A stretch of 64,000 nucleotides of DNA from an uncultured Desulfospira sp. (GCA_963663165.1 OY760175.1:1408001-1472000), one strand, 5' to 3'; counted from the stretch's first letter, positions 3,701 through 17,860 are shown. The notes: generated by a model not told the origin, from the sequence alone. Made by a program: numbers and translations.

Positions 3701-4981
3701 CTATGATGATTTTATAATTTTTAACACGGTCAAAAGATTTTTTTTTCGAAAAACATAAGTTCGCATAAACGTGAATAAAAGAGAGAGAAAGGGTTTTGGA
3801 TCATCCCAAGCCAGATAAGCATACTCTCTTCTTCCTTTCACAGATCGTATAACCTCACCCAAAGATACTTTTTTTTTCATCAAGTACCCATCAAAAGAAA
3901 AAACAGCTAATATCTCCCTAATAATATCAACCCAGATTACTTTTATTTTTGGGGGCTTGATCCATTTAATTTTCTCACCTAAAATTTCTTTATATGCCAT
4001 ATATTCCATATTCATTCCGCAACGTGCTGACAGTCGGTTCTGTGTTGTGGACCTTGCATTAATCTCGACAAGTTTCAGCTTTCCGTCACTGTGATCTCTT
4101 TGAATTTCCGCTTCTGCAAACCCGGTATAACCGATTGATTTAAGGCATTGCACCGCCAAATCCACGGCACCCGGTTCCCACACCGTAAAACAGGAACTGG
4201 CATTCCCGAAGTCAATTGGCTGGATCCGAAGTTTTTGATAACAACATGCAGCTTTTAGATTTGAATCCCGGTCAAAATACATATTAACGAGATACCGTTC
4301 CGTCCCTATGAGCTCTTTTTGAACAATAATATCGTCTTCTTCGCAGGACACTTTCCGGTACACTTCAACAAGTTCTTCTGCTGAGCTGGCTTTAAGGCAT
4401 TTGTTGCCAAACTTAGCCACAAACGATGTAGACTGAACTGGCTTTAAAATGCAGGGATAGTCGAGTTTCTGACTGATTTTCCTGACTTCGGCCATGTTCT
4501 CCGGGACATCGGTTTTTGCATGGGGGATACCAAACTTGCGGAGGGTATCATAAAATCGAATTTTATCTACCAGGATCTCAACAACCTTGATAGGGGCCAT
4601 TGGAAGGTGAAAATACGCCTCAAGTTTTTTCCTGTGGCGAAGAACACACATGAGCTGGAGATCCCCGGATACAAACATTACCGGTTTTAATTTACACTCC
4701 CTGCCTACAGCCGCCAGAAAAGATATAAATTGTTCTTCAAAATCTTTATAATCAGGGCAAATCATTCTTTTTGCATATCGTGACAGAAAGGTAATATTTT
4801 GCCGTTTACTGTCTATGGATAGAACAGGAACATTTTCTCTGCCCAGATTAAGAACAATACCATAGCCATTGGAATCCCCGGAGTTTAAAACAACGGCACC
4901 GGATCTGTTCCTTTTACAGGCCAAGTGATTAAAAGAGGAGAGGGTTTTCAAATCATTCATATTGAACACGTTGGTTTTCAT
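3701..4981 (-). CDS. ATP-grasp carboxylate-amine ligase (D-aspartate ligase-like)
   Basis: DKIRFY, YPCILKP and LVEINARS ATP-grasp motifs. Confidence 0.8.
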   Translation of the reverse strand: MKTNVFNMNDLKTLSSFNHLACKRNRSGAVVLNSGDSNGYGIVLNLGRENVPVLSIDSKRQNITFLSRYAKRMICPDYKDFEEQFISFLAAVGRECKLKPVMFVSGDLQLMCVLRHRKKLEAYFHLPMAPIKVVEILVDKIRFYDTLRKFGIPHAKTDVPENMAEVRKISQKLDYPCILKPVQSTSFVAKFGNKCLKASSAEELVEVYRKVSCEEDDIIVQKELIGTERYLVNMYFDRDSNLKAACCYQKLRIQPIDFGNASSCFTVWEPGAVDLAVQCLKSIGYTGFAEAEIQRDHSDGKLKLVEINARSTTQNRLSARCGMNMEYMAYKEILGEKIKWIKPPKIKVIWVDIIREILAVFSFDGYLMKKKVSLGEVIRSVKGRREYAYLAWDDPKPFLSLLFTFMRTYVFRKKNLLTVLKIIKSS

Positions 4982-8676: not shown

Positions 8677-10055
8677 GGGATGTGGTAAAATTAAAACCCA
8701 CAATTCATTCCTCATAGCATGGAATATCAACAGCCCATTTTTCAATCCCTGGAATCCGAATAATTTTGTTTTCTATATTATTCACGACGGACTTGACCAA
8801 ACGTACCCCTGTCGGGTAAACACCTTTGATTAATTTGACGACAGGATTTTCTCCTTTCCATGTCATTGTTCGACATAGACCGAGAACCTTTTCAATTTTG
8901 TTCAGCAATTCGCCTTTCCAATGATTTTCCAAAACACCCCAAACTCGCTCTATTGGGTTGTATTTACTGTGGTACGGGGGATAGTACACCAAACTAATAT
9001 TTACAAATGCTGATTTGGCAAAGTCCACGAGGCGACTAATGAATTGGCTCCTTCGGCTACTATTTTCCGGCCCATTATCAAGATTGATCACCAGTGTATG
9101 TGGGGCGAATCTTGCGTTCAAAGAAGGCCAGAGTGATTCCAGCGCATCAATCATGAAATCAGAGGTGATGTTGCTTTCAGTGAAGTACATATAATTTTCA
9201 TCCAGAGCAGGTATGTTGATACCGAAAAGTTTCAAAAGGGAATCGGGTTTAAAATCATGGTCCGCCGCTTTAAGATTGCAACGACTATATCCGCCTCGGG
9301 AATAAGGCCCTATTTTAATAGTGGCTTTTGCGTCCATTGAGATACGTAAAACGCCATCTGTTTCATCGGCTAGTTGGTTTGTCCTATGCACATATTCAAA
9401 AATGATGTCTGTTTCAGGAATTTTTTTTTACCTTGGCTTTGGCGACCTTCTTCAGTTTAAAACCCAATTTATTCATTATGGTGGATAGAGTCCGTACTGT
9501 TGGCATATTCTCAGGGTCATATCCCATGTCGTCAACTAATCGACGGAATACTTCATTCGCAGATATTGGGGAATATAAATTCTGGGTACGGAATGTAGGA
9601 TCAGTCTGACATATAGGGTTTACAATACGAGTTATGTCCTCTTTTAAATTCGGAAAATGTTCTAAACACGATTTCCGGCCTCGTCCGGAAAAATTATCAA
9701 CACAGGTAACTCCGCTTTCTATTTCCCGTCGCCCTTTGATTATTGTTTTCCGATCCCAACCCAGTTCTCTTTCAGCCTTTAGTTGTCCGCCGTGCCCCAT
9801 AAGGGAGACAACGCGTGCCATGAATTGGCGCCGTTCATGGCCTTTTAATTTGCTTCGAGTGGTATTCAGAAAATCCTTTAGTGGTGGCGTTAATTCCGAT
9901 ATAGTTTTGGGTAAATTGTGCTTAGAATGATCAAACATGGTCCTCCTGTATTTTTATGTAATCTTCCATGTTGACCATAAACTATCGATTCCATGTTGTC
10001 TATAGAAATCAGAATTCAGACTATGGAATTGTGGATATTAATTTTTCTGAGGCCC
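8677..10055 (-). mobile_element. ISAzo13-family insertion sequence, copy 2 (1379 bp), nested in IS1380
   Basis: Same ends as copy 1. TCA duplication at 8674-8676 and 10056-10058. Two 1-bp homopolymer contractions and one SNP relative to copies 1 and 3. Confidence 0.93.
8705..9938 (-). CDS. ISAzo13 transposase, copy 2 (split at an A9 tract)
   Basis: Same protein as copy 1; orfA ends KVKKNS*. Confidence 0.8.
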
Positions 10056-11794
10056 TCAGATCATGTCGTCAACATGGCATATAATATTCTTGCCGGTGGC
10101 ACCTGCCTTCAGGATATTGAGCTGCTCAGAAACAATGAAGCCTGGTTGAATGCTCTGGATGCAGAAATTATCCCCGATCCCACTACAGCCGGAGACTTTT
10201 TGCGCCGGTTTTCCAAGGAAGATATCATAACTCTGCAGGACGTCAAAAATACCATCCGGAAAAAGGTATGGGAAAAGCAGCCGCAAAACTTCAAGAAAGA
10301 AGCCATCATCAATATCGACGGCACTATCAGTGAAACAACCGGCGAGTGCAAACAGGGTATGGACATCTCTTATAATGGTAAGTGGGGATATGCCCCTCTG
10401 ATAGTCTCTCTGGAAAAAACAAGGGAGCCTCTTTATATAATCAATCGATCCGGCAATGCTCCGTCCCACCTCAACTCTGCGGGTTGGGTGGATAAGTCCC
10501 TTGATCTGCTGGAAGGCACTTTTAAAAAATTATACGTTCGGGGTGATACTGATTTCAGCCTTACTTCCAATTTTGACAAATGGGATCAACGCTGTACCTT
10601 TGTCTTTGGCATGGATGCCAGATCAAACCTGATAAAACTGGCCGGTGGCCTTTCAGATTCCGAATGGGAGATATTTGAAAAACAGCCGCAAGCAATCAAA
10701 ACAATCCCCAGAAAACGTCCTGAAAATATCAAACTTCAAGTGGTCAAAAAACGCAATTTCAAACGTCTTGAGACCGCCTGTGAACATATAGCCGAATTTG
10801 AATATAAACCTGGTAAATGTCGGCAACCCTACCGGATGATCGTGCTGCGCAAAACAATAAATGAGTATAAAGGCGAACGTCTATTGTTTGACGATATCCG
10901 TTACTTTTTTTACATCACAAACGATTGGAAAAAATCAGCCAGGCACCTGGTGGATTTTTACCGGAAACGGGCGGATCACGAAAATGACATTGATCAGTTG
11001 AAACATGGCGTGCATGCAATGGCTAATCCTTCTGATTCCCTAAATGCCAACTGGGCCTATATGGTTGTTGCATCTTTGGCATGGGATCTGAAAGCCTGGT
11101 ATGGAATGATGATGCCGTATCGAGCTTTAGGTCTTTCCATCGTCCGTATGGAATTCAAACGCTTTATCCAGACATTTATAAATATCCCTTGCTTGATCAT
11201 ACGTTCCGGCAGGGCCATTAAATATCGAATCATTGGTTATAACAACAGGCTCACAAGCGTGTTCAAGTTTTTTAACTCTTTGAAGACTGCCTGGGTTACA
11301 TGATGCCTTTGCTCCGGACAGTTATTGCAAACGGGCTGCAATGGCGAGTCTAAAACCTGTAGATTTCAAAAGGGAATTTAAGCAATGAACCACAACACAA
11401 TCGGCAGTATTCCAAAAAACATCAGGACTCGTGCGTCTGTTTGATGGAAATTGGAGACACAAAATAATAGCTCGGGGCGCCGATTGCTTATGAGAAATTC
11501 ATTTTTTATAACACGCTTGTTTTGGGATTAATACATCTTTTTAAGTAATACCTGGATATACTATATTCCCTCTCAAAACTAAAAAAAGACACTGCCCCAG
11601 AAATAAAAAAGAATATCGGAACAAAAACGTGCAGAAACTCTGAGTAAGGCCGATAGTGAGAATGGTCACAAAAAATCATGGAAAAATTGAAGATAATTTG
11701 CAAGATATGTCAGGTTTGAGGCAGAAGTTCCCCTGTTTATCTCGCAAATAATCGTGAAACTCCTGCCTCCCCACCCAATAACAGGGCAGGAGAT

Positions 11795-12382
11795 ATGCTA
11801 TCAGAAGTTCTGAAAAACGAAAGTTTTTTTTGGGATCTATACAAAATAGATCTGGCAACAGCCGAACGTTATAGACAGATGAAGTGCCCCCACTGCCAGG
11901 GACCGTTGTATTATGCCAATTATCCGCGCAAACCCAGGGGGGAGCCTGAAGGGTTGTCTGAAGAATGTTTTTTACAATTCAGTTTATGTTGCGGAAGGGA
12001 AGGCTGTCGACGTCGTTTGATCCCGCCAACCTGCCGTTTCCTTGGTAAAAACATTTACTGGTATGCGGCCATTCTGACGATTGTGTCCGACTGGCAGAAC
12101 CAATCTGTAGGTATCACGATGTCCAGGTTTGCTGAAACAATCGGTATCTCCCGCAACACCCTTAGCCGCTGGGTCAGCTTATTCAAAGAAATATTTCCAA
12201 CAAGCTCTCAATGGAAGAAAATCCGGGGCCGAGTACCTGCAAGCGTAAAAAATGATCGTCTTCCAGCAAGTTTGGTCAACTTCTATCTGCATCAACAGGC
12301 GTCCATCAAAAAAACGTTGATCTCCTGTTTGTCATTCTTGTCTCAAGGCAGTGAAATATCACAAAAAATAAGGGCCGGGTAA
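11795..12382 (+). CDS. Transposon accessory protein, Zn-finger plus HTH-like
   Basis: CPHC...CCGREGC cysteine cluster; 'GISRNTLSRWV' HTH-like segment; GGAG RBS. Confidence 0.75.
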   Translation: MLSEVLKNESFFWDLYKIDLATAERYRQMKCPHCQGPLYYANYPRKPRGEPEGLSEECFLQFSLCCGREGCRRRLIPPTCRFLGKNIYWYAAILTIVSDWQNQSVGITMSRFAETIGISRNTLSRWVSLFKEIFPTSSQWKKIRGRVPASVKNDRLPASLVNFYLHQQASIKKTLISCLSFLSQGSEISQKIRAG

Positions 12383-12497
12383 TCTCACGCAGAAGATGGG
12401 CGTGGCCTTGGGCGCTCAACTGTTCTATCAAAGGGGCCGGGATTTTTATCAGCATTTCGCTGAAAATTTTAACTCAAAATTGAAAGGACCCCGGCCT

Positions 12498-13943
12498 ATG
12501 AACAGTAAAAACCAAAGTCCGGTTGATAACTGGGCTTTGTTTCGCTTCTCAGTCGTTGGCGGTTTGCTGGCAAATCCGCCGGCCAAAGGTGAGCTGCGCA
12601 AGGAACTGGAAAAGCTTTCCTATCAGATTTACACCCATCCCATCACGAACGAATCAACGGTATTTCATTTTTCAACTATTGAAAGCTGGTATTACAAGGC
12701 AAAAAATGCCCAGGACCCCATTATTGCTTTAGGGCGGAAAGTTCGTTCTGACTATGGCGGTTCAATTGTATTCACACCTGAACTGATCCGGATGCTGGGC
12801 AGACAATACCGGACTTATCCGAACTGGAGCTACAAACTGCACGCAGATAATTTCGCAGCAGAACTCCAGGAAAAGGAGGCTTCAGTATCGGTACCATCCT
12901 ATGCCAGTGTCCGGCGGCGGATGATCGAAAGGGGGTGGACCAGGAAGCCCTCAGCAAAGAAAAAACAGACAGCGGGTATGAAAATTGCCGCAAAGCGGTT
13001 CGAAAGCCATGAAATCCGAGGATACGAAGCAGAATATGTTCACAGCCTGTGGCATCTGGATTTTCATGAAGGCAGTCTGCGGGTGGTGGATAACAACGGT
13101 AACTGGTATACGCCCAAAGCCTTATGTATTCTTGACGACCATTCCCGCCTGTGCTGCCACATCCAATGGTATTCAGGAGAAACCACCCAGGATTTGATTC
13201 ATGGATTGACCCAGGCATTTTTCAAAAGGGGGCTTCCCAGGGCACTGATGACGGACAACGGATCTGCCATGACCTCCCATGAGTTTTGCAACGGTCTTAA
13301 AAAAACAGGGATACTTCATGAAACGACACTGCCCTACAGCCCTTATCAAAACGGTAAGCAGGAAGCCTTTTGGGGAACCCTTGAAGGCAGATTGATGGCC
13401 ATGCTGACCCGGGTGGACCCTCTGACACTGGAATATCTCAATCACAGCAGTCAGGCCTGGGTCGAGATGGAATATAACAAAACCAGGCATAGTGACATCG
13501 GCACATCTCCTGTTCAACGCATGCTTGAAGGCAAAGATGTTTCCCGGCCGGCACCGGATGAAGAGCAACTGAGGTTCGCCTTTACAGTCTGCGAATCCAG
13601 AAATCAGCGAAAATCTGACGGTACCGTGTCCATCAACGGGGTAAGATTTGAGATCCCTTCCCGGTTTCACCATATCCCTCGGTTACATGTCTGCTTTGCC
13701 AATTGGGATAAATCCATGGCCTGGCTCATGGACCAGAGAACCGGCAAACAGATTGCGCAGATCTACCCCCAGGACAAAATCAAAAATGCTTCAGGAAAAC
13801 GAAAGATCAAGTCGAGACCTGAGCATACCATTCTACCGGATGAAACATTGAAAGAATCCGAGCCTGCATTATTAAGAAAACTGATGGCCGAGTATGCCCA
13901 AAGCGGCATGCCTCCAGCCTATCTTCCCAAAGGAGAATCATGA
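12498..13943 (+). CDS. DDE transposase/integrase (rve core, IS481/Mu-like C-terminus)
   Basis: LWHLDFH, LMTDNGS and NGKQEAFW catalytic D-D-E; 'DGTVSINGVRFEIP' Mu-like C-terminal motif. Likely start MNSKNQ after GAAAGGA. Confidence 0.9.
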   Translation: MNSKNQSPVDNWALFRFSVVGGLLANPPAKGELRKELEKLSYQIYTHPITNESTVFHFSTIESWYYKAKNAQDPIIALGRKVRSDYGGSIVFTPELIRMLGRQYRTYPNWSYKLHADNFAAELQEKEASVSVPSYASVRRRMIERGWTRKPSAKKKQTAGMKIAAKRFESHEIRGYEAEYVHSLWHLDFHEGSLRVVDNNGNWYTPKALCILDDHSRLCCHIQWYSGETTQDLIHGLTQAFFKRGLPRALMTDNGSAMTSHEFCNGLKKTGILHETTLPYSPYQNGKQEAFWGTLEGRLMAMLTRVDPLTLEYLNHSSQAWVEMEYNKTRHSDIGTSPVQRMLEGKDVSRPAPDEEQLRFAFTVCESRNQRKSDGTVSINGVRFEIPSRFHHIPRLHVCFANWDKSMAWLMDQRTGKQIAQIYPQDKIKNASGKRKIKSRPEHTILPDETLKESEPALLRKLMAEYAQSGMPPAYLPKGES

Positions 13944-14767
13944 ACAACAAACAGCTTCTGGCTTATTACGGCCTTAAATGGAACCCTTTTTTTCCTAATA
14001 TCCCCGTGGAAGCCTTATGGCATCCGCCATTGATGAACAGTTTTATTTTTCGTCTTGAGAATATGACCCTGAACGGGGGCTTTGCTTTGATCAGCGGGGA
14101 CCCCGGCCTTGGCAAATCCAAGGCGTTGCAGATGATTGCCCAAAAGTTCGGTAAACTTGACGAGGTAGTTGTCGGGGTAATGGAACGTCCCCAAAGCAGT
14201 GTCGGAGACTTTTACCGGGAAATGGGAGTTTTGTTTGGTGTCAATTTGAGCCCTGCCAACCGGTACGGCGGGTTCAAGGATCTTCGGGAGCGCTGGAAAA
14301 GTCATGTAAAAACCACCTTGTTCCGGCCCATCCTGCTCATAGATGAGGCCCAGGAGATGCTGACCGGATGCTTAAATGAACTGCGTTTGTTGAACAGCGC
14401 GGACTTTGACTCCCAAAACCTGTTGACCACCGTGATTTGCGGCGATGACCGGCTCCCGGAACGGTTCAGATCAAGATCCCTGGTATCGCTGGGAAGCCGG
14501 ATGCAGTTCCGGCTGACGCTGCTTCCCTATGTCCGGGATGACCTGCTGGATTACATGGATCACAGCCTGAACCAGGCCGGCGCCCCGCACTTAATGACGA
14601 AAACTCTGATCAGGACCCTTGCAGACCATTGCGCCGGCAACCTGCGGGTTCTTAACAATATGGCCGCAGACCTGCTGACTGCGGGGATTGAAAAAGAACT
14701 CAATCAATTGGACGAAAAGCTTTTTATGGAAGTCTATTCCAGACAGCCGCCCAATAAAAAATCATAG
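13940..14767 (+). CDS. ExeA-like AAA+ ATPase (transposition helper)
   Basis: Walker A GDPGLGKS and Walker B LLIDEAQ; ATGA overlap with the transposase. Confidence 0.9.
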   Translation: MNNKQLLAYYGLKWNPFFPNIPVEALWHPPLMNSFIFRLENMTLNGGFALISGDPGLGKSKALQMIAQKFGKLDEVVVGVMERPQSSVGDFYREMGVLFGVNLSPANRYGGFKDLRERWKSHVKTTLFRPILLIDEAQEMLTGCLNELRLLNSADFDSQNLLTTVICGDDRLPERFRSRSLVSLGSRMQFRLTLLPYVRDDLLDYMDHSLNQAGAPHLMTKTLIRTLADHCAGNLRVLNNMAADLLTAGIEKELNQLDEKLFMEVYSRQPPNKKS

Positions 14768-14776
14768 GAGAACAAT

Positions 14777-14959
14777 ATGGGTATTTATGATGATCCGGAC
14801 ATGAAACTGGAAGAAATCACACAGGAATTGGAACATTTTATCCTGGATATGGTCCTTGCCGGACTTGAAAGCTTGAATATGGAATATCGGGCCTTCAGGC
14901 GATTCCAGAAACAAAGGCTCACGGAAAAGAACCGTCATAAAGAACACGAGCCGTTTTGA
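14777..14959 (+). CDS. Small hypothetical protein (60 aa) in the transposon operon
   Basis: AGGAG RBS; co-directional and tightly spaced between the ATPase and the primase. Confidence 0.6.
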   Translation: MGIYDDPDMKLEEITQELEHFILDMVLAGLESLNMEYRAFRRFQKQRLTEKNRHKEHEPF

Positions 14960-14996
14960 ACGTACGCCCGGACTCCAAAGGTCCGGGCCTGCCTCA

Positions 14997-15785
14997 ATGG
15001 AAAAAATACTTTGGAAAATCGGCAATTATTTTAAGCACCGCTTCAGCCTGGCAGTTCTTGATGAAATTAAGGGCCGGTGGCCCGTTCTCCCCTCTTGTAA
15101 AAACATCCCTTATCTTAAAGCTGAAAATGCCGGAGGAAGGCACATCCTGATCAGACCTGATCCTGTTATTCAGCCTTATTATTTTCTTGCCGACGATTTA
15201 AACATTGACCTGCTTATCCGGCATCATCAATCCATATCAAACCGCTTTAAACCAGGCAGGATGGTTATAGAAACATCTCCCGGCAATTATCAAATTTGGA
15301 TTCACAGTGACCGTCCGTTAAGCCTTCCCGAAAAAAAGTATTGGTTGGAAAACATGCACAGTGATCCCGGCGCCGACCCGAAAAACAGGTGGGGCAGATG
15401 CCCCGGGTTCAGGAACAGAAAAGCAAAACACAGAACGCCTTCAGGACAATACCCTTTGGCAAAGCTATTATGGGTGGACTGGAAATGCCAGGCTATTGTC
15501 CCTGAAATAGAATTATCCTCCCAACCTCAAGAAGTCTTTTCCCATCAACCCCGGGGGGGAGTGTGCCATAACGGTAATATTTCCCGCTCCCTCTATGATA
15601 AGGGTGACGAATCTGCCACTGATTTTGCATATGCTCTGGCCCTCTATAGAAGAGGTTTCTCACGAATGGAAATTTACAATCGCATTATCAATGAAAGGCA
15701 GGATTGGATTAATCATGCGGGTGAACGAAAAAAAACACAGTATCTGATCAGGACATTACAGAAAGCTGAAAAAATTATCAGTTAA
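14997..15785 (+). CDS. RepB'-like DNA primase (archaeo-eukaryotic primase superfamily, RSF1010 RepB type)
   Basis: FLADDL, VIETSPGNYQIW and DPGAD..WGRCPGFRNRK motifs, plus C-terminal DESATDFAYALAL helix-bundle motif. Confidence 0.85.
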   Translation: MEKILWKIGNYFKHRFSLAVLDEIKGRWPVLPSCKNIPYLKAENAGGRHILIRPDPVIQPYYFLADDLNIDLLIRHHQSISNRFKPGRMVIETSPGNYQIWIHSDRPLSLPEKKYWLENMHSDPGADPKNRWGRCPGFRNRKAKHRTPSGQYPLAKLLWVDWKCQAIVPEIELSSQPQEVFSHQPRGGVCHNGNISRSLYDKGDESATDFAYALALYRRGFSRMEIYNRIINERQDWINHAGERKKTQYLIRTLQKAEKIIS

Positions 15786-15949
15786 AATCGGGCTCTCTTG
15801 GCCTCCGGGAAAGCCCTTATTTACCATGAAACGTTGTCCATGAATTATCGTGATTGCTCTCACGATAGAACCAAAACCCCCCTACATGTCCGAAAACAAT
15901 TGCAAAAATTGCAATCGTCCTCACATAAGATAGGAAATCGCTGTCTGTC

Positions 15950-17860
15950 TTAGAAAGAGTAGCTGCCATCGCCATCGAAAAAAATTCTATGAAACAACTC
16001 CAAGGTGATCAATGAAATAATAGTGGCAGAAGACCCTGAAGCATAATCTGTTTTTTGATCTAAAAAATTGTTCACCAGTTGTTCTAAAAATTGCTTATCA
16101 AAATAGCCCCGGCTTGTTGTCCGAGAATCCAGTAGTAACTCTTTAACATATTTTGGATTTCTTTGGATTAGCCATTGATCAATCGGCATATCAAATCCTT
16201 TTTTTTTCTTTCTCAACGTTTGTTCAGGAAGAATATTGCCCATGATTTTCTTAAGAATGTATTTACCCTCTCTGCCCTTTATTTTCATTGAAACAGGTAA
16301 GGAAGCCACAAATTCTACCAACTCTCTATCATGAAAGGGGCTTATTGCAACCAACCCGTGAGCCATTGTCATTCGATCCACCTTCACCATCAGGTCATCA
16401 GGTGCATATGAATGGGTATCAAAATAAAGCATTCTATCAATCATCTCGAAACCGGACACTTCCCCGTATAACGACTCCGCATAGGAGAGCGGGTTGTTTT
16501 TTTTGTTTATTTCCATCATATCTGATGAATAAAGGCAGGGTTTCATAAGCTCGGGAACAGGCATATTGCAAATAATTCGCTGCATCTCAATGGGAAATGT
16601 TTCTCTGTACAATTTTCTTTTTATTTTATCATTCAAAGAAGATGTGCCGGAAGATATGGGAAGCCTTTTAATAATTCTATTTACAAATTTGTTCCGAAAA
16701 AGAAAGTTTAAACGAGAATCATTCTCCCTATGGTCCAAGGCTTTCATATAATGGCCTGATCCCCCTAAAATCTGATCCGGCAAATCTCCTGTCAAGACAA
16801 CATCAACTTCACTTTTGGCTAATTTTGAAGCAAAATATGAAGGTATGGCAGAGGTGTCGCTAAAAGGTCCATCATGGAACCAGACCAATTTTTCAACGAG
16901 ATCTGAAAAATCACTTCCGAACTCAATGATTGTTGAGTAGTGTAATAGCCCTAAATGATCTGCGACTATTTTTGCATCATCAATTTCGTTATATTCTTTT
17001 TCCCTGAATCCACCTGAAAACACTTTAAAAGGTGAGGGGCGAATCTTGCTCATTGCAGCCACAACACTGCTTGAATCCATCCCGCCACTAAGAAATGCTC
17101 CTGCATCCGGATATTTGTCTAAGCATCTTGAAACCGCTTTCAGGAATATGTCGTAAAATTGAGCACAATAGAATTCTTCACTTTGTTCTTCAGCCTCGTG
17201 ATGGTATTCAAACTGCCAGTATCGTTTTTCTTCAACACTTGATTCTTTAAAAACCACCATATGCCCGGGGCGTACCTGGAAAACGGATTGAAGCATGGTG
17301 TTAGGACTTGGAACATACCAATAAGATAAAAAATCATCTATTGCGCCAAGGTTAACCCTTTTTTCAATAAGCCCGGTTCCAATTATCGCCTTTATCTCAG
17401 AAGCGAATAGAATGGTACCGTCATTCTTTTTTGTATAAAATATTGGTTTCGCGCCCATTCGGTCACGTATCAGAATCAACTCTCTTCTTTTACCGTCCCA
17501 AATAGATATACTGTAAGATCCGTCGATCTTATCAACACAATCCTTCCCATAATTTTTATACAGTTGCAAGACAAGTTGGGCATCTCCCAAACTTTCGCAT
17601 AGAGCCGATTTATCACCAGTCTGACAAAGAATATCTCCATCCATGGCCACCATGATATCTTCTTTTGTATCTATGGCATGGACTTTAGAATCCCTTCCCC
17701 CATAAGTGTGGTATCGTACCCCTGCTGAAAACGGCATAGAAGAGTCGTTCACCCATGCGTATTTCCCCCGATGACAGATAGCACCAAGCATTGTTGTGAT
17801 TAACCCGTGTTTTTCATTTTGATCAATTTTGCGACTATGGATTCCTGCAATTCCACCCAT
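15950..17860 (-). CDS. Asparagine synthetase-like amidoligase lacking the N-terminal catalytic Cys
   Basis: RDRMGAKP, FASEIK, FLSGGMDSS and KVDRMTMAHG motifs, but starts MGGIAG. Confidence 0.85.
   Translation of the reverse strand: MGGIAGIHSRKIDQNEKHGLITTMLGAICHRGKYAWVNDSSMPFSAGVRYHTYGGRDSKVHAIDTKEDIMVAMDGDILCQTGDKSALCESLGDAQLVLQLYKNYGKDCVDKIDGSYSISIWDGKRRELILIRDRMGAKPIFYTKKNDGTILFASEIKAIIGTGLIEKRVNLGAIDDFLSYWYVPSPNTMLQSVFQVRPGHMVVFKESSVEEKRYWQFEYHHEAEEQSEEFYCAQFYDIFLKAVSRCLDKYPDAGAFLSGGMDSSSVVAAMSKIRPSPFKVFSGGFREKEYNEIDDAKIVADHLGLLHYSTIIEFGSDFSDLVEKLVWFHDGPFSDTSAIPSYFASKLAKSEVDVVLTGDLPDQILGGSGHYMKALDHRENDSRLNFLFRNKFVNRIIKRLPISSGTSSLNDKIKRKLYRETFPIEMQRIICNMPVPELMKPCLYSSDMMEINKKNNPLSYAESLYGEVSGFEMIDRMLYFDTHSYAPDDLMVKVDRMTMAHGLVAISPFHDRELVEFVASLPVSMKIKGREGKYILKKIMGNILPEQTLRKKKKGFDMPIDQWLIQRNPKYVKELLLDSRTTSRGYFDKQFLEQLVNNFLDQKTDYASGSSATIISLITLELFHRIFFDGDGSYSF

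Follow-up and report, generated by a model that had tools for sequence, protein, structure and literature searches.

The window analysed here, a stretch of 64,000 nucleotides from an uncultured Desulfospira sp. (GCA_963663165.1 OY760175.1:1408001-1472000), contains a transposon of 4206 bp at positions 11657-15862, with TG..CA ends as read directly from the sequence (Table 1). The left terminal 29 nt agreed with the reverse complement of the right terminal 29 nt at 21 positions, and this terminal pair was the first-listed repeat in an inverted-repeat search of the sequence. Direct reading confirmed the ends, the imperfect terminal repeat and the CGATAG duplication that an earlier note on this DNA had described, and its five co-directional genes were likewise recovered when the ORFs were mapped. 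In-silico excision of the element together with one CGATAG gave a single open frame with 96 codons running across the joint, and the two flanking host fragments matched consecutive parts of the Acyl_transf_3 profile, both with scores below the gathering score, as expected at such short length. A stop at 11506 nevertheless remains in the rejoined frame, so that what is left of the acyltransferase gene is a remnant. The remnant adjoins another transposase gene (9993-11303, DDE_Tnp_1_4).

Table 1. Features of the transposon and of the host gene that it interrupts (positions in the window)
Feature	Positions	Strand	Remarks
Host acyltransferase-3, downstream fragment	11506..11656	-	Acyl_transf_3 profile 42-77, E 0.00015
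Target-site duplication CGATAG, left copy	11651..11656	.	recurs at right end
Left terminal inverted repeat	11657..11685	+	begins TGAGA
ORF1, 195 aa, Cys-cluster (Zn-ribbon-like) and helix-turn-helix DNA-binding protein	11795..12382	+	weak HTH matches
DDE transposase, 481 aa	12498..13943	+	rve 5.8e-13 (Pfam); alternative upstream ATG at 12396
AAA+ ATPase, 275 aa	13940..14767	+	AAA_22 4.6e-16 (Pfam); 4-base overlap with transposase stop
Small ORF, 60 aa	14777..14959	+	occurs in primase-bearing A-type relatives
RepB'-type DNA primase, 262 aa, catalytic and helix-bundle domains	14997..15785	+	PF16793, PF22448
Right terminal inverted repeat	15834..15862	-	terminates TCTCA
Target-site duplication CGATAG, right copy	15863..15868	.	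direct reading
Host acyltransferase-3, upstream fragment (start)	15869..15975	-	Acyl_transf_3 profile 3-29, E 0.001

We found 11 copies of the transposon with exactly the same ends in its own genome, nine of them contiguous, one spanning the start and end of a contig and one split by two other elements, and the primase was present in all 11. Five copies were identical across the full 4206 bp by direct comparison, and two further ones were 100% identical by BLAST. The element is a precisely bounded, recently active transposon that moves together with its primase, in agreement with the earlier suggestion that the whole had moved as one unit. Target duplications varied from copy to copy in sequence and in length: two were of 3 bp, one of 4 bp, five of 5 bp and three of 6 bp, the duplication of the window copy being one value within a range centred on 5. 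A non-autonomous 373-bp derivative with the same termini was present in three copies in this genome, so that nothing in cis beyond the ends is required.

Matches to rve, AAA_22, RepB_primase and RepB_primase_C were all above the Pfam gathering scores. In the ORF1 protein, C65, C66 and C71 were invariant in 16 of 16 homologues; its AF2 model had a mean pLDDT of 76, a Foldseek search returned nothing at E<=0.001, and structural comparison gave just winged-HTH regulators at Z<=4.5. The transposase residues D188, D253 and E289 were invariant in 16 of 16 sequences, and the upstream ATG is probably not its start, since the homologues have 478-502 aa. Its N-terminal region matched TnsB weakly (E 9e-4), and its nearest NCBIfam model was that of IS481 (NF033577), at 104.6 bits against a cut-off of 224. 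This score and the presence of five genes in 4.2 kb led us to reject the IS481 family, whose members are single-gene insertion sequences of about 1 kb. The best PHROGs families were phrog_310 for the transposase (transposable-phage transposase, 3.4e-33) and phrog_296 for the ATPase (DNA transposition protein, 6.4e-14), which upholds the earlier likening of this pair to Mu A/B. In the ATPase, Walker A (G56-S60) and D135/E136 were invariant in 15 of 15 sequences; there was no sequence-level match to any solved structure. For the small ORF, tblastn matched 10 of the 18 loci of the window's own type (type A, see below) at 32-100% identity, and also three further loci (L109, L021 and L027); searches assigned it to no family, gave no atlas match and showed no resemblance to the 71-aa ORF encoded by the transposon Tn6049. 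As had been claimed before, ORF calls, Pfam and NCBIfam revealed no resolvase, relaxase or recognisable TniQ among the five ORFs, and Pfam found no DNA polymerase domain in any of them.

The profile and structure searches that had been suggested for the last gene confirmed a RepB'-type primase. RepB_primase (PF16793) matched with 58.0 bits (gathering score 24.3, E 1.5e-15) and RepB_primase_C (PF22448) with 34.6 bits (gathering score 26.1, E 1.7e-08), and the primase profile matched RSF1010 RepB' (3H20) with both domains covered (E 8.8e-19). Residues D66, D67, D123 and R134, invariant in 16 of 16 sequences, align to D77, D78, D134 and R145 of RepB', which are catalytic, and the equivalent of R285 in its helix bundle was nearly invariant (residue roles from the cited part of PMC8567376). 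The dN/dS ratio was computed for 12 pairs, and the 10 of them that had a dS below 1.2 gave values of 0.11-0.24, indicating that the primase is under strong purifying selection in these multi-copy elements; with both domains, the catalytic residues and a low dN/dS, the enzyme looks functional. An ssi-like priming site was not identified in the element: the right end folds like shuffled sequences (z -0.23 and 0.08), a conserved right-end block is common to primase-less relatives too, and structured stretches near the left end resemble, by eye, ones in such relatives.

Gene order and sequence place this active element in the Tn6049 family, although as a variant with extra genes and not as a typical member. 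Its transposase shared 46.9% identity with that of Tn6049 from Cupriavidus metallidurans CH34 (96% coverage, E 4e-133), and in the transposase tree Tn6049 (L121) was the earliest-branching row inside type A, which was separated from type B with a support of 100. Tn6049 likewise carries a small ORF at the position of ORF1, annotated 'transposase', a 479-aa DDE transposase (annotated IS481 family), an AAA ATPase ('gspA') and a short ORF, but it is 3.5 kb long and has no primase, whereas the 4.2-kb window element has the 60-aa ORF and the 262-aa primase. Both are present in many copies per genome, Tn6049 reaching 12 in CH34 with no primase (cited part of PMC2864759). According to the cited part of PMC4739549, where Tn6049 is also described, it has a 12-bp inverted repeat beginning with TG and a 4-bp direct repeat; the window termini begin with TG as well but otherwise differ in sequence, and the window duplications are of 3-6 bp. 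The window termini are shared with 3.4-kb relatives that are closer than Tn6049. Tn6049 also occurs on the P. aeruginosa plasmid pHS87a. Our literature search, in which the Tn6049-related transposon table of PMC3414803 was not covered, found no report on primases in such transposons.

We classified the surroundings of related primases into type A, with the DDE transposase and ATPase of the window's type, type B, with a related DDE transposase and ATPase, and type C, which is IS21-like. In species-representative genomes, 60 of 77 primase loci adjoined a DDE transposase module (18 of type A, 40 of type B and two of type C), and in one further locus the primase followed a tyrosine-recombinase trio. 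Of 269 metagenome loci, the best 80 comprised 35 of type A, 27 of type B and 11 with recombinase trios. These primases grouped in a single clade (SH-aLRT 96), separate from relatives that occur in ICE-like or relaxase contexts, indicating that this clade is almost confined to small mobile elements of types A and B, IS21-like elements and tyrosine-recombinase trios, and that the primase belongs to a transposon-specialised lineage. The nearest primases outside transposons sit among SSB, DUF932, RadC, ParB and integrase genes, a neighbourhood that we take to be typical of the leading regions of conjugative elements. The association with any one transposase clade, which the earlier note had wanted checked, is recurrent in A-type loci but not constant: on the transposase tree, in which every primase-bearing clade was well supported, the presence of the primase needs at least seven changes. 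Two type-A elements bear a primase from a type-B primase clade (support 99), and within this genome the two subfamilies differ less in their primase part (pS 0.024) than in their transposase (pS 0.118), a sign that modules have been exchanged. As judged from these trees and distances, the primase is repeatedly gained, lost or exchanged among small mobile elements.

The gene slot between the ATPase gene and the right end was compared among relatives. Many are 3.4-kb three-gene elements without a primase and with the same order of core genes; relatives with 47-57% transposase identity and homologous inverted repeats also lack it, and the 26-nt terminus type of the window element is common to relatives with and without primase. 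The slot is empty in five A-type relatives whose right ends are complete (L110, L111, L113, L116 and L117) and likewise without an enzyme gene in Tn6049, and type-B loci sampled from the transposase side gave no primase in 20, six of which had enough sequence to be sure. Two other A-type relatives carry a different enzyme, L119 a CHC2 and Toprim DnaG-like primase within the inverted repeats and L120 an AAA_25 helicase with a DnaG-type primase. Slot content in the relatives examined is not random, being nothing, a RepB'-type primase, a DnaG-type primase, or a helicase and a DnaG-type primase. Of the observations that the earlier note had named as speaking against its idea, the lack of the primase in close relatives was found, and random cargo at its position was not. 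Since the slot holds replication genes or nothing, a possible role of the primase in replication of the element is, if anything, strengthened.

We therefore favour, with a probability of roughly 0.55, an explanation in which DNA synthesis on an intermediate of transposition is primed by the element itself. A core of a Zn-ribbon/HTH protein, a MuA/TnsB-like DDE transposase and a MuB/TniB-like AAA+ ATPase has acquired the small ORF and an intact RepB'-type primase between the ATPase gene and the right end, and the primase would supply the primer or primers for the synthesis that duplicates the element. It may prime synthesis of the lagging or complementary strand during replication of a strand-transfer (Shapiro) or copy-out intermediate, a form that we put forward tentatively; it is also conceivable, though unlikely, that it serves replication of an excised circle. 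Either way, dependence on the host restart primosome would be reduced. The IEE PrimPol and the primase-helicase of SCCmec, cited below as precedents, support self-priming, and several points count against it or limit it. Members without the enzyme (Tn6049, of which CH34 has 12 copies, the five A-type relatives and the sampled type-B loci) show that the family does not need a primase; the 373-bp derivative needs nothing in cis but the ends; no ssi-like priming site was identified; a Shapiro intermediate offers a 3'-OH at both ends, so that a primase is not strictly needed; and tyrosine-recombinase trios make no forks, so that the occurrence of the same primase clade with them argues against a fork-specific role.

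That the family works without the enzyme, type B included, would also fit a passenger primase, which aids the host or the element apart from transposition, for example by repriming after DNA damage, by converting incoming ssDNA into dsDNA or in conflicts with other mobile elements, and is simply carried along in the single position that tolerates it in small transposons. Insertion beside the right end would presumably disturb the operon least, and the neighbourhood of the nearest primases outside transposons is consistent with this reading. We regard this as rather unlikely, because the slot in the loci examined holds replication genes or nothing, the same primase clade turns up beside four mutually unrelated recombinase modules, purifying selection is strong in multi-copy elements, and in type B the primase gene follows the ATPase gene closely, in most loci starting 3 to about 90 bp past the end of the ATPase match. 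A plasmid-like phase, in which the excised circle replicates autonomously for some rounds with its own primase and host helicase and polymerase, is a narrower form of the self-priming explanation. The primase also accompanies recombinase trios and IS21-like transposases, whose elements are generally regarded as having circular or junction forms as intermediates. In addition, the helicase and primase of L120 represent two of the three replication functions of RSF1010 (cited part of PMC8567376), and SCCmec is a precedent (cited part of PMC7581432). A phase of this kind nevertheless seems improbable, as ORF calls, Pfam and a repeat search found no initiator protein, iterons or origin-like repeat within the 4.2 kb, and RepB' needs exposed single-stranded hairpins, of which none stands out. 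Nor did the contigs contain a circle junction, though they could not have shown one. The proposal of the earlier note, which recognised no described family, would make the element an entirely new class characterised by its primase. It could draw on a transposase that scores under the cut-off of each NCBIfam IS-family model and on the generic source names in the homologue lists, but it is contradicted by a core that matches Tn6049 in gene order and sequence, by termini shared with primase-less three-gene relatives and by a primase that is an add-on gained or lost repeatedly, making it highly improbable.

What is known here is the Tn6049-type core, and what is added, by sequence comparison, is the small ORF and the RepB'-type primase of the 4.2-kb variant. 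An element of a known but little-studied transposon family that carries its own primase hints that some bacterial transposons carry part of their copying machinery. It is possible, at somewhat less than even odds, that capture of a primase has happened again and again in small bacterial transposons whose recombinases belong to several unrelated types. The captured primases would be of two unrelated folds, RepB'/AEP-like and DnaG/Toprim, in some cases together with a helicase, and the reason would be that such transposons build a minimal primosome of their own on the intermediate of transposition. If so, these self-primed replicative transposons would be a bacterial counterpart of self-synthesizing transposons, and the RepB'-type clade would be a line of primases adapted to residence in transposons.

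Among known systems, Mu A/B, Tn552 and Tn5053/Tn7 resemble the window element in having a gene for an rve-fold DDE transposase followed by one for an AAA+ ATPase, and their TG..CA ends and modal 5-bp duplication match as well. The element differs in lacking the resolvase of Tn552 and Tn5053, TnsA of Tn7 and a recognisable TniQ; Pfam gave no match in it to a TniQ/TnsD-type selector, and ORF1, with its Zn-ribbon and winged HTH, had no clear structural match. To our knowledge, none of Mu, Tn552, Tn5053 and Tn7 encodes a primase, and Mu relies on the host PriA-DnaB-DnaG pathway. RSF1010 RepB' (PDB 3H20, 3H25) is similar to the window primase in its two-domain build and catalytic residues, but has 323 aa compared with 262 aa and belongs to a plasmid origin region with RepA, RepC and ssiA/ssiB, whereas the window primase lies in a transposon that has no such site identified and neither a RepA helicase nor a RepC initiator gene among its ORFs. 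RepB' synthesises DNA primers at specific hairpins, and its replicon can dispense with host priming (cited part of PMC8567376). Casposons and Polintons, the self-synthesizing transposons, encode an enzyme that serves their own replication (cited part of PMC4046053), in their case a family-B DNA polymerase combined with Cas1 or a retroviral-type integrase, whereas the window element lacks a polymerase and has just the primase. The IEE (insertion sequence excision enhancer) PrimPol works on insertion sequences that form circles (cited part of bioRxiv 10.1101/2023.06.07.543989), but IEE is a PrimPol-helicase fusion encoded outside the insertion sequence, unlike the RepB'-type primase, which lies within a DDE transposon of 4 kb. 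SCCmec has a primase and a helicase of its own (cited part of PMC7581432) and is a large island moved by serine recombinases, not a 4-kb DDE transposon with a RepB'-type enzyme. What IEE and SCCmec have in common with the window element is that primase-type enzymes are tied to the movement of integrated elements.

The element that interrupts the acyltransferase-3 gene of the window was found to be a Tn6049-type transposon which, as we show here, moves together with an intact and conserved primase. When the plasmid collection was searched by tblastn, a transposase 46.9% identical to that of the element (96% query cover) was found in 18 records from Cupriavidus and on P. aeruginosa pHS87a, and the annotated order on pMOL30, 'transposase' (181 aa), 'IS481 family transposase' (479 aa), 'AAA family ATPase' (277 aa) and a 71-aa ORF, is that of the element's core, so that the view taken in the earlier note, that this was not a described insertion sequence family, has to be given up. 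The pMOL30 element is Tn6049, for which PMC2864759 gives a length of 3.5 kb, 12 copies in CH34 and an ATPase named 'gspA', and PMC4739549 gives, for the pHS87a copy, 12-bp inverted repeats and a 4-bp direct repeat. By sequence and gene order the element is classed as a member of the Tn6049 family; its transposition core thus belongs to a known family, the mechanism of which is unstudied. The best NCBIfam model for the transposase, IS481, scored only 104.6 bits against a cut-off of 224, and the element is therefore not an IS481 member. Among the transposable phages in PHROGs, the transposase matched a transposase family (3.4e-33) and the ATPase a 'DNA transposition protein' (6.4e-14). Residues D188, D253 and E289 were invariant in 16/16 transposases and the Walker motifs in 15/15 ATPases; solved structures gave no match to the ATPase at the sequence level.

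The five ORFs of the element are co-directional and tightly spaced, and its two ends agree in inverted orientation at 21 of 29 positions. In fold searches with the predicted structure of ORF1, Foldseek gave nothing at E<=0.001 and the remaining matches were generic winged-HTH ones with Z<=4.5, which neither supports nor excludes a TniQ-like role. ORF4 had no family and no atlas match, and was unlike the short ORF of Tn6049.

Positions of the transposon, its genes and related features (G000:C1, contig of the window's own genome; L-numbers, loci fetched for comparison)
Feature	Position	Length	Description
Transposon	window 11657-15862	4206 bp	starts TGAGA, ends TCTCA
Target duplication	both sides of the element		CGATAG
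ORF1		195 aa	conserved Cys cluster, weak helix-turn-helix signal
ORF2	ATG at window 12498	481 aa, counted from this ATG	DDE transposase
ORF3		275 aa	AAA+ ATPase
ORF4		60 aa	no family matched
ORF5		262 aa	RepB_primase and RepB_primase_C domains
Neighbouring transposase gene	window 9993-11303 (+)	436 aa	DDE_Tnp_1_4; adjoins truncated end of acyltransferase remnant
Element copies	G000:C1 at 6740860/1, 1253997, 1419657, 1531838, 1904028, 2584991, 3867756, 4276670, 4929062, 5560455, 5603621		11 copies
Mosaic copy (L006)	G000:C1:3867756-3871961		
Twice-interrupted copy (L142)	G000:C1:4928900-4939400		
Non-coding derivative	G000:C1:5266572-5266944; others start at 4409221, end at 2727359	373 bp	three identical copies
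DnaG-like primase (L119)	L119, 6941-7873	310 aa	CHC2 zinc ribbon and Toprim, inside inverted repeats
Helicase and DnaG-like primase (L120)	L120, 299-2367		AAA_25, then CHC2 and Toprim

Within its own genome, a single 6.74-Mb contig, the element was present as nine contiguous full-length copies, one copy running across the start and end of the contig, and one interrupted by two other elements. Every copy had its own duplication (3, 3, 4, 5, 5, 5, 5, 5, 6, 6 and 6 bp), which upholds the proposal that the element moves as one precisely bounded unit; the copies with differing duplications expected in the earlier note were found, but the length is 3-6 bp and not fixed at 6. Direct comparison showed five copies to be identical across all 4206 bases, BLAST found two more at 100% identity, three had 112 differing positions, and one had 38, every one within the transposase and ATPase genes. 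The last, L006, is a mosaic that agrees with the window copy at every base of ORF1, the small ORF, the primase and the non-coding parts, suggesting, from this pattern of differences, gene conversion between the genome's two subfamilies. Another copy, 100% identical, was found in a same-genus genome, and junctions of the window copy and of other copies were seen in contigs from four sequencing runs; two 'skip' joints in these contigs, each in a single contig with short sides, were disregarded. All but one of the 11 copies are on the contig's + strand (two-sided binomial, about 0.012), a bias that is not in step with the replichores (cumulative GC skew minimum near 4.0-4.2 Mb, maximum near 0.75 Mb) and may be due to chance.

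In addition, a non-coding derivative with the same kind of termini occurs with 5-bp duplications of its own (TCTGA, CAGAT and CTTGT), indicating that the ends suffice in cis; it is MITE-like and presumably moved in trans by the element's transposase. In the twice-interrupted copy, L142, the insertion after element position 220 is a 4063-bp element that carries a 179-aa ORF and a tandem of three overlapping tyrosine-recombinase genes, and that after position 3991 is a 1901-bp DUF4277 and DDE_Tnp_1 insertion sequence, with six element bases repeated at each insertion joint. Recombinase-trio elements inside Tn6049-like transposons are noted for Acidithiobacillus in PMC3414803.

On the Pfam profile the two acyltransferase-3 fragments cover successive stretches, and in-silico excision joined them into a single open frame, as had been claimed; the host gene is nonetheless a remnant. 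A further transposase gene adjoins its truncated end, and the acyltransferase gene may have been struck twice by mobile elements. An empty site was sought in two same-genus genomes and not obtained: in one (G001) the match began only at right-flank base 112, with 79% identity, and the other (G002) gave no match.

The identification of ORF5 as a RepB'-like primase was borne out, both domains being present and a 16-sequence profile matching RepB' of plasmid RSF1010 (structure 3H20) with an E value of 8.8e-19 across the catalytic and helix-bundle domains. Residues D66, D67, D123 and R134 align to RepB' D77, D78, D134 and R145 and were all invariant, and R252, aligned to RepB' R285, was nearly so; the roles of these RepB' residues are treated in PMC8567376. 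By its domains and catalytic residues, the predicted protein is a member of the RepB' family. The ratio dN/dS of the primase was 0.11-0.24 in 10 pairs with dS <1.2, a further pair near saturation giving 0.09 and one being saturated, and these comparisons show a primase that is, as predicted from its gene, intact and conserved.

The composition of the slot, the position between the ATPase gene and the right end of the element, was examined in an even sample of 301 genomes of the window's order, among them the genome that contains the window. Transposases of the window's Tn6049-like module (type A) were found at E<=1e-40 in 16 of these, and 12 loci were fetched. A RepB'-type primase occupied the slot in one locus (72% transposase identity), and five (47-57% identity) had complete right ends and a slot without a gene, the homologous terminal repeat lying about 280-350 bp past the ATPase gene. 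L119 and L120 carried DnaG-like primases in the slot, in L120 preceded by a helicase, and the other four loci were cut by contig ends. Primase-less type-A relatives with both ends located were 3.4-3.5 kb long. The related type-B module, which combines a DUF6431-like Cys protein and an AAA_22 ATPase with an rve transposase of 436 aa bearing a Mu-transposase C-terminal signal, was commoner (51/301 genomes vs 16/301), and the primase was absent from all 20 best type-B loci, with sequence long enough for certainty in six. The primase is therefore an accessory and not a core gene. Relatives lacking it, which the earlier note had named among the findings that would refute its reading, exist; random cargo, also named there, was not seen in the loci examined, the occupied slots holding replication genes.

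With the primase as the starting point, 77 loci were collected from species-representative genomes, of which 60 lay in DDE modules: 18 of type A, 40 of type B and two of the IS21-like type C, with the primase, a ParB_N-like gene and an rve and Mu-transpos_C_2 transposase. Of the others, one lay behind three tandem tyrosine recombinases (L052), eight were ICE-like, amid SSB, DUF932, RadC, MoxR-like AAA_5 ATPase, ParB and integrase genes, one was beside a MobA relaxase, three were at a contig start and four, including three broken copies from a single genome, were partnerless. The 60 loci came from 44 assemblies, mostly of Thermodesulfobacteriota; the few Bacteroidota, Chloroflexota and archaeal labels, mostly on short contigs of binned genomes, were not relied on. 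In metagenomes, the best 80 of 269 loci comprised 35 of type A, 27 of type B, 11 with a recombinase trio and primase, three weakly C-like and four partnerless. Many of these contigs were about 4 kb, the length of one element, as assemblies give for repeats. Primase-bearing elements of type B are likewise genuine transposons: in one genome, three copies had common ends (TGTT..AACA) and three different 5-bp duplications.

The trio with primase recurs as a unit of about 4 kb (L052, L179, L185, L188, L193, L201-L203, L205, L209, L211 and L219), in which a primase of the same clade starts 66-199 bp past the third recombinase gene and the recombinase proteins are 57-97% identical among loci. That these are trios inserted into A or B transposons was rejected, since no remnants of either were found in the 11 metagenome loci and L052, and since the spacing is kept across that range of identity; to our knowledge, a primase has not been described in such recombinase-trio elements. 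The contigs L059 (= L025) and L078, about 4.4-4.6 kb, carry the primase, the ParB_N-like gene and the IS21-like transposase (rve and Mu-transpos_C_2) and share 49-56% protein identity; no IstB-type ATPase was seen on them. The nearest non-transposon primases (43-46% identity; L088-L093, L101 and L102) are located in islands of the Desulfosarcina type, with an SSB gene on one side and DUF932, RadC, MoxR-like AAA_5 ATPase, ParA/ParB and integrase genes on the other, and such islands are a likely source context of the transposon-borne lineage.

The transposon-borne primases formed one clade (SH-aLRT 96, in a tree from a quick search with no bootstrap), apart from the ICE-like and relaxase-linked primases. 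On the transposase tree (67 rows), primase presence requires at least seven changes, a minimum that does not depend on scoring loci of insufficient sequence as absent. Two type-A elements with transposases in a type-A clade had primases nested in a type-B primase clade (support 99), and the sister pair of these two on the transposase tree had primases from the window's primase clade. Furthermore, the synonymous-site difference between the own-genome subfamilies was 0.118 for the transposase vs 0.024 for the primase. The number of changes, the cross-type nesting and this disparity point to a primase module that would have been repeatedly gained and exchanged, and then retained.

We infer, with a probability of about 0.55, that the element uses the primase to initiate DNA synthesis on its transposition intermediate. 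A nick-and-join pathway is suggested by the Mu-like transposase and ATPase pair and by the absence of a second nuclease of the TnsA type; its product would have to be replicated, and the complementary or lagging strand would then need a primer. Alternatively, the primed molecule may be a circular intermediate copied after excision, as the association of the primase with recombinase trios and IS21-like transposases would indicate; a precedent for circle copying is SCCmec, which encodes both a primase and a helicase (PMC7581432). An essential role is disfavoured, because sister elements, Tn6049 and the 373-bp derivative manage without a primase of their own, and because no priming site was found, with folding of the element ends and the ORF1-transposase spacer, and right-end alignments, giving nothing specific to primase-bearing elements. 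That the primase is a passenger, with a role unrelated to transposition, we consider unlikely, and other or unknown primase roles take up the rest. Priming of the element's intermediate is supported by the recruitment of two unrelated primase folds, once with a helicase, to the same slot, by the recruitment of one primase clade by four kinds of recombinase module, and by the position of the type-B primase gene close behind the ATPase gene; the primase is not random cargo.

Among the articles searched, no primase was reported in Tn6049-like, IS481-like or Tn552-like elements. Whether transposition needs priming, and if so at which step, could be addressed in a compact system: a widespread set of 4-kb elements with a primase in a fixed slot, and with natural sisters that have none or one of another fold. 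The set may also be a source of small, site-specific DNA primases. In annotation, genes of this kind labelled 'RepB family DNA primase' on 4-kb contigs mark transposons and not plasmids. How a replicative or copy-out transposon acquires a replisome is not known in detail except for phage Mu, which relies on the restart primosome of its host. The core of the present element would work like those of Mu, Tn552 and Tn5053; the element differs from Tn6049 by two extra genes, and its primase, unlike RepB' of RSF1010, is accompanied by neither RepA nor RepC nor a recognisable ssi site.
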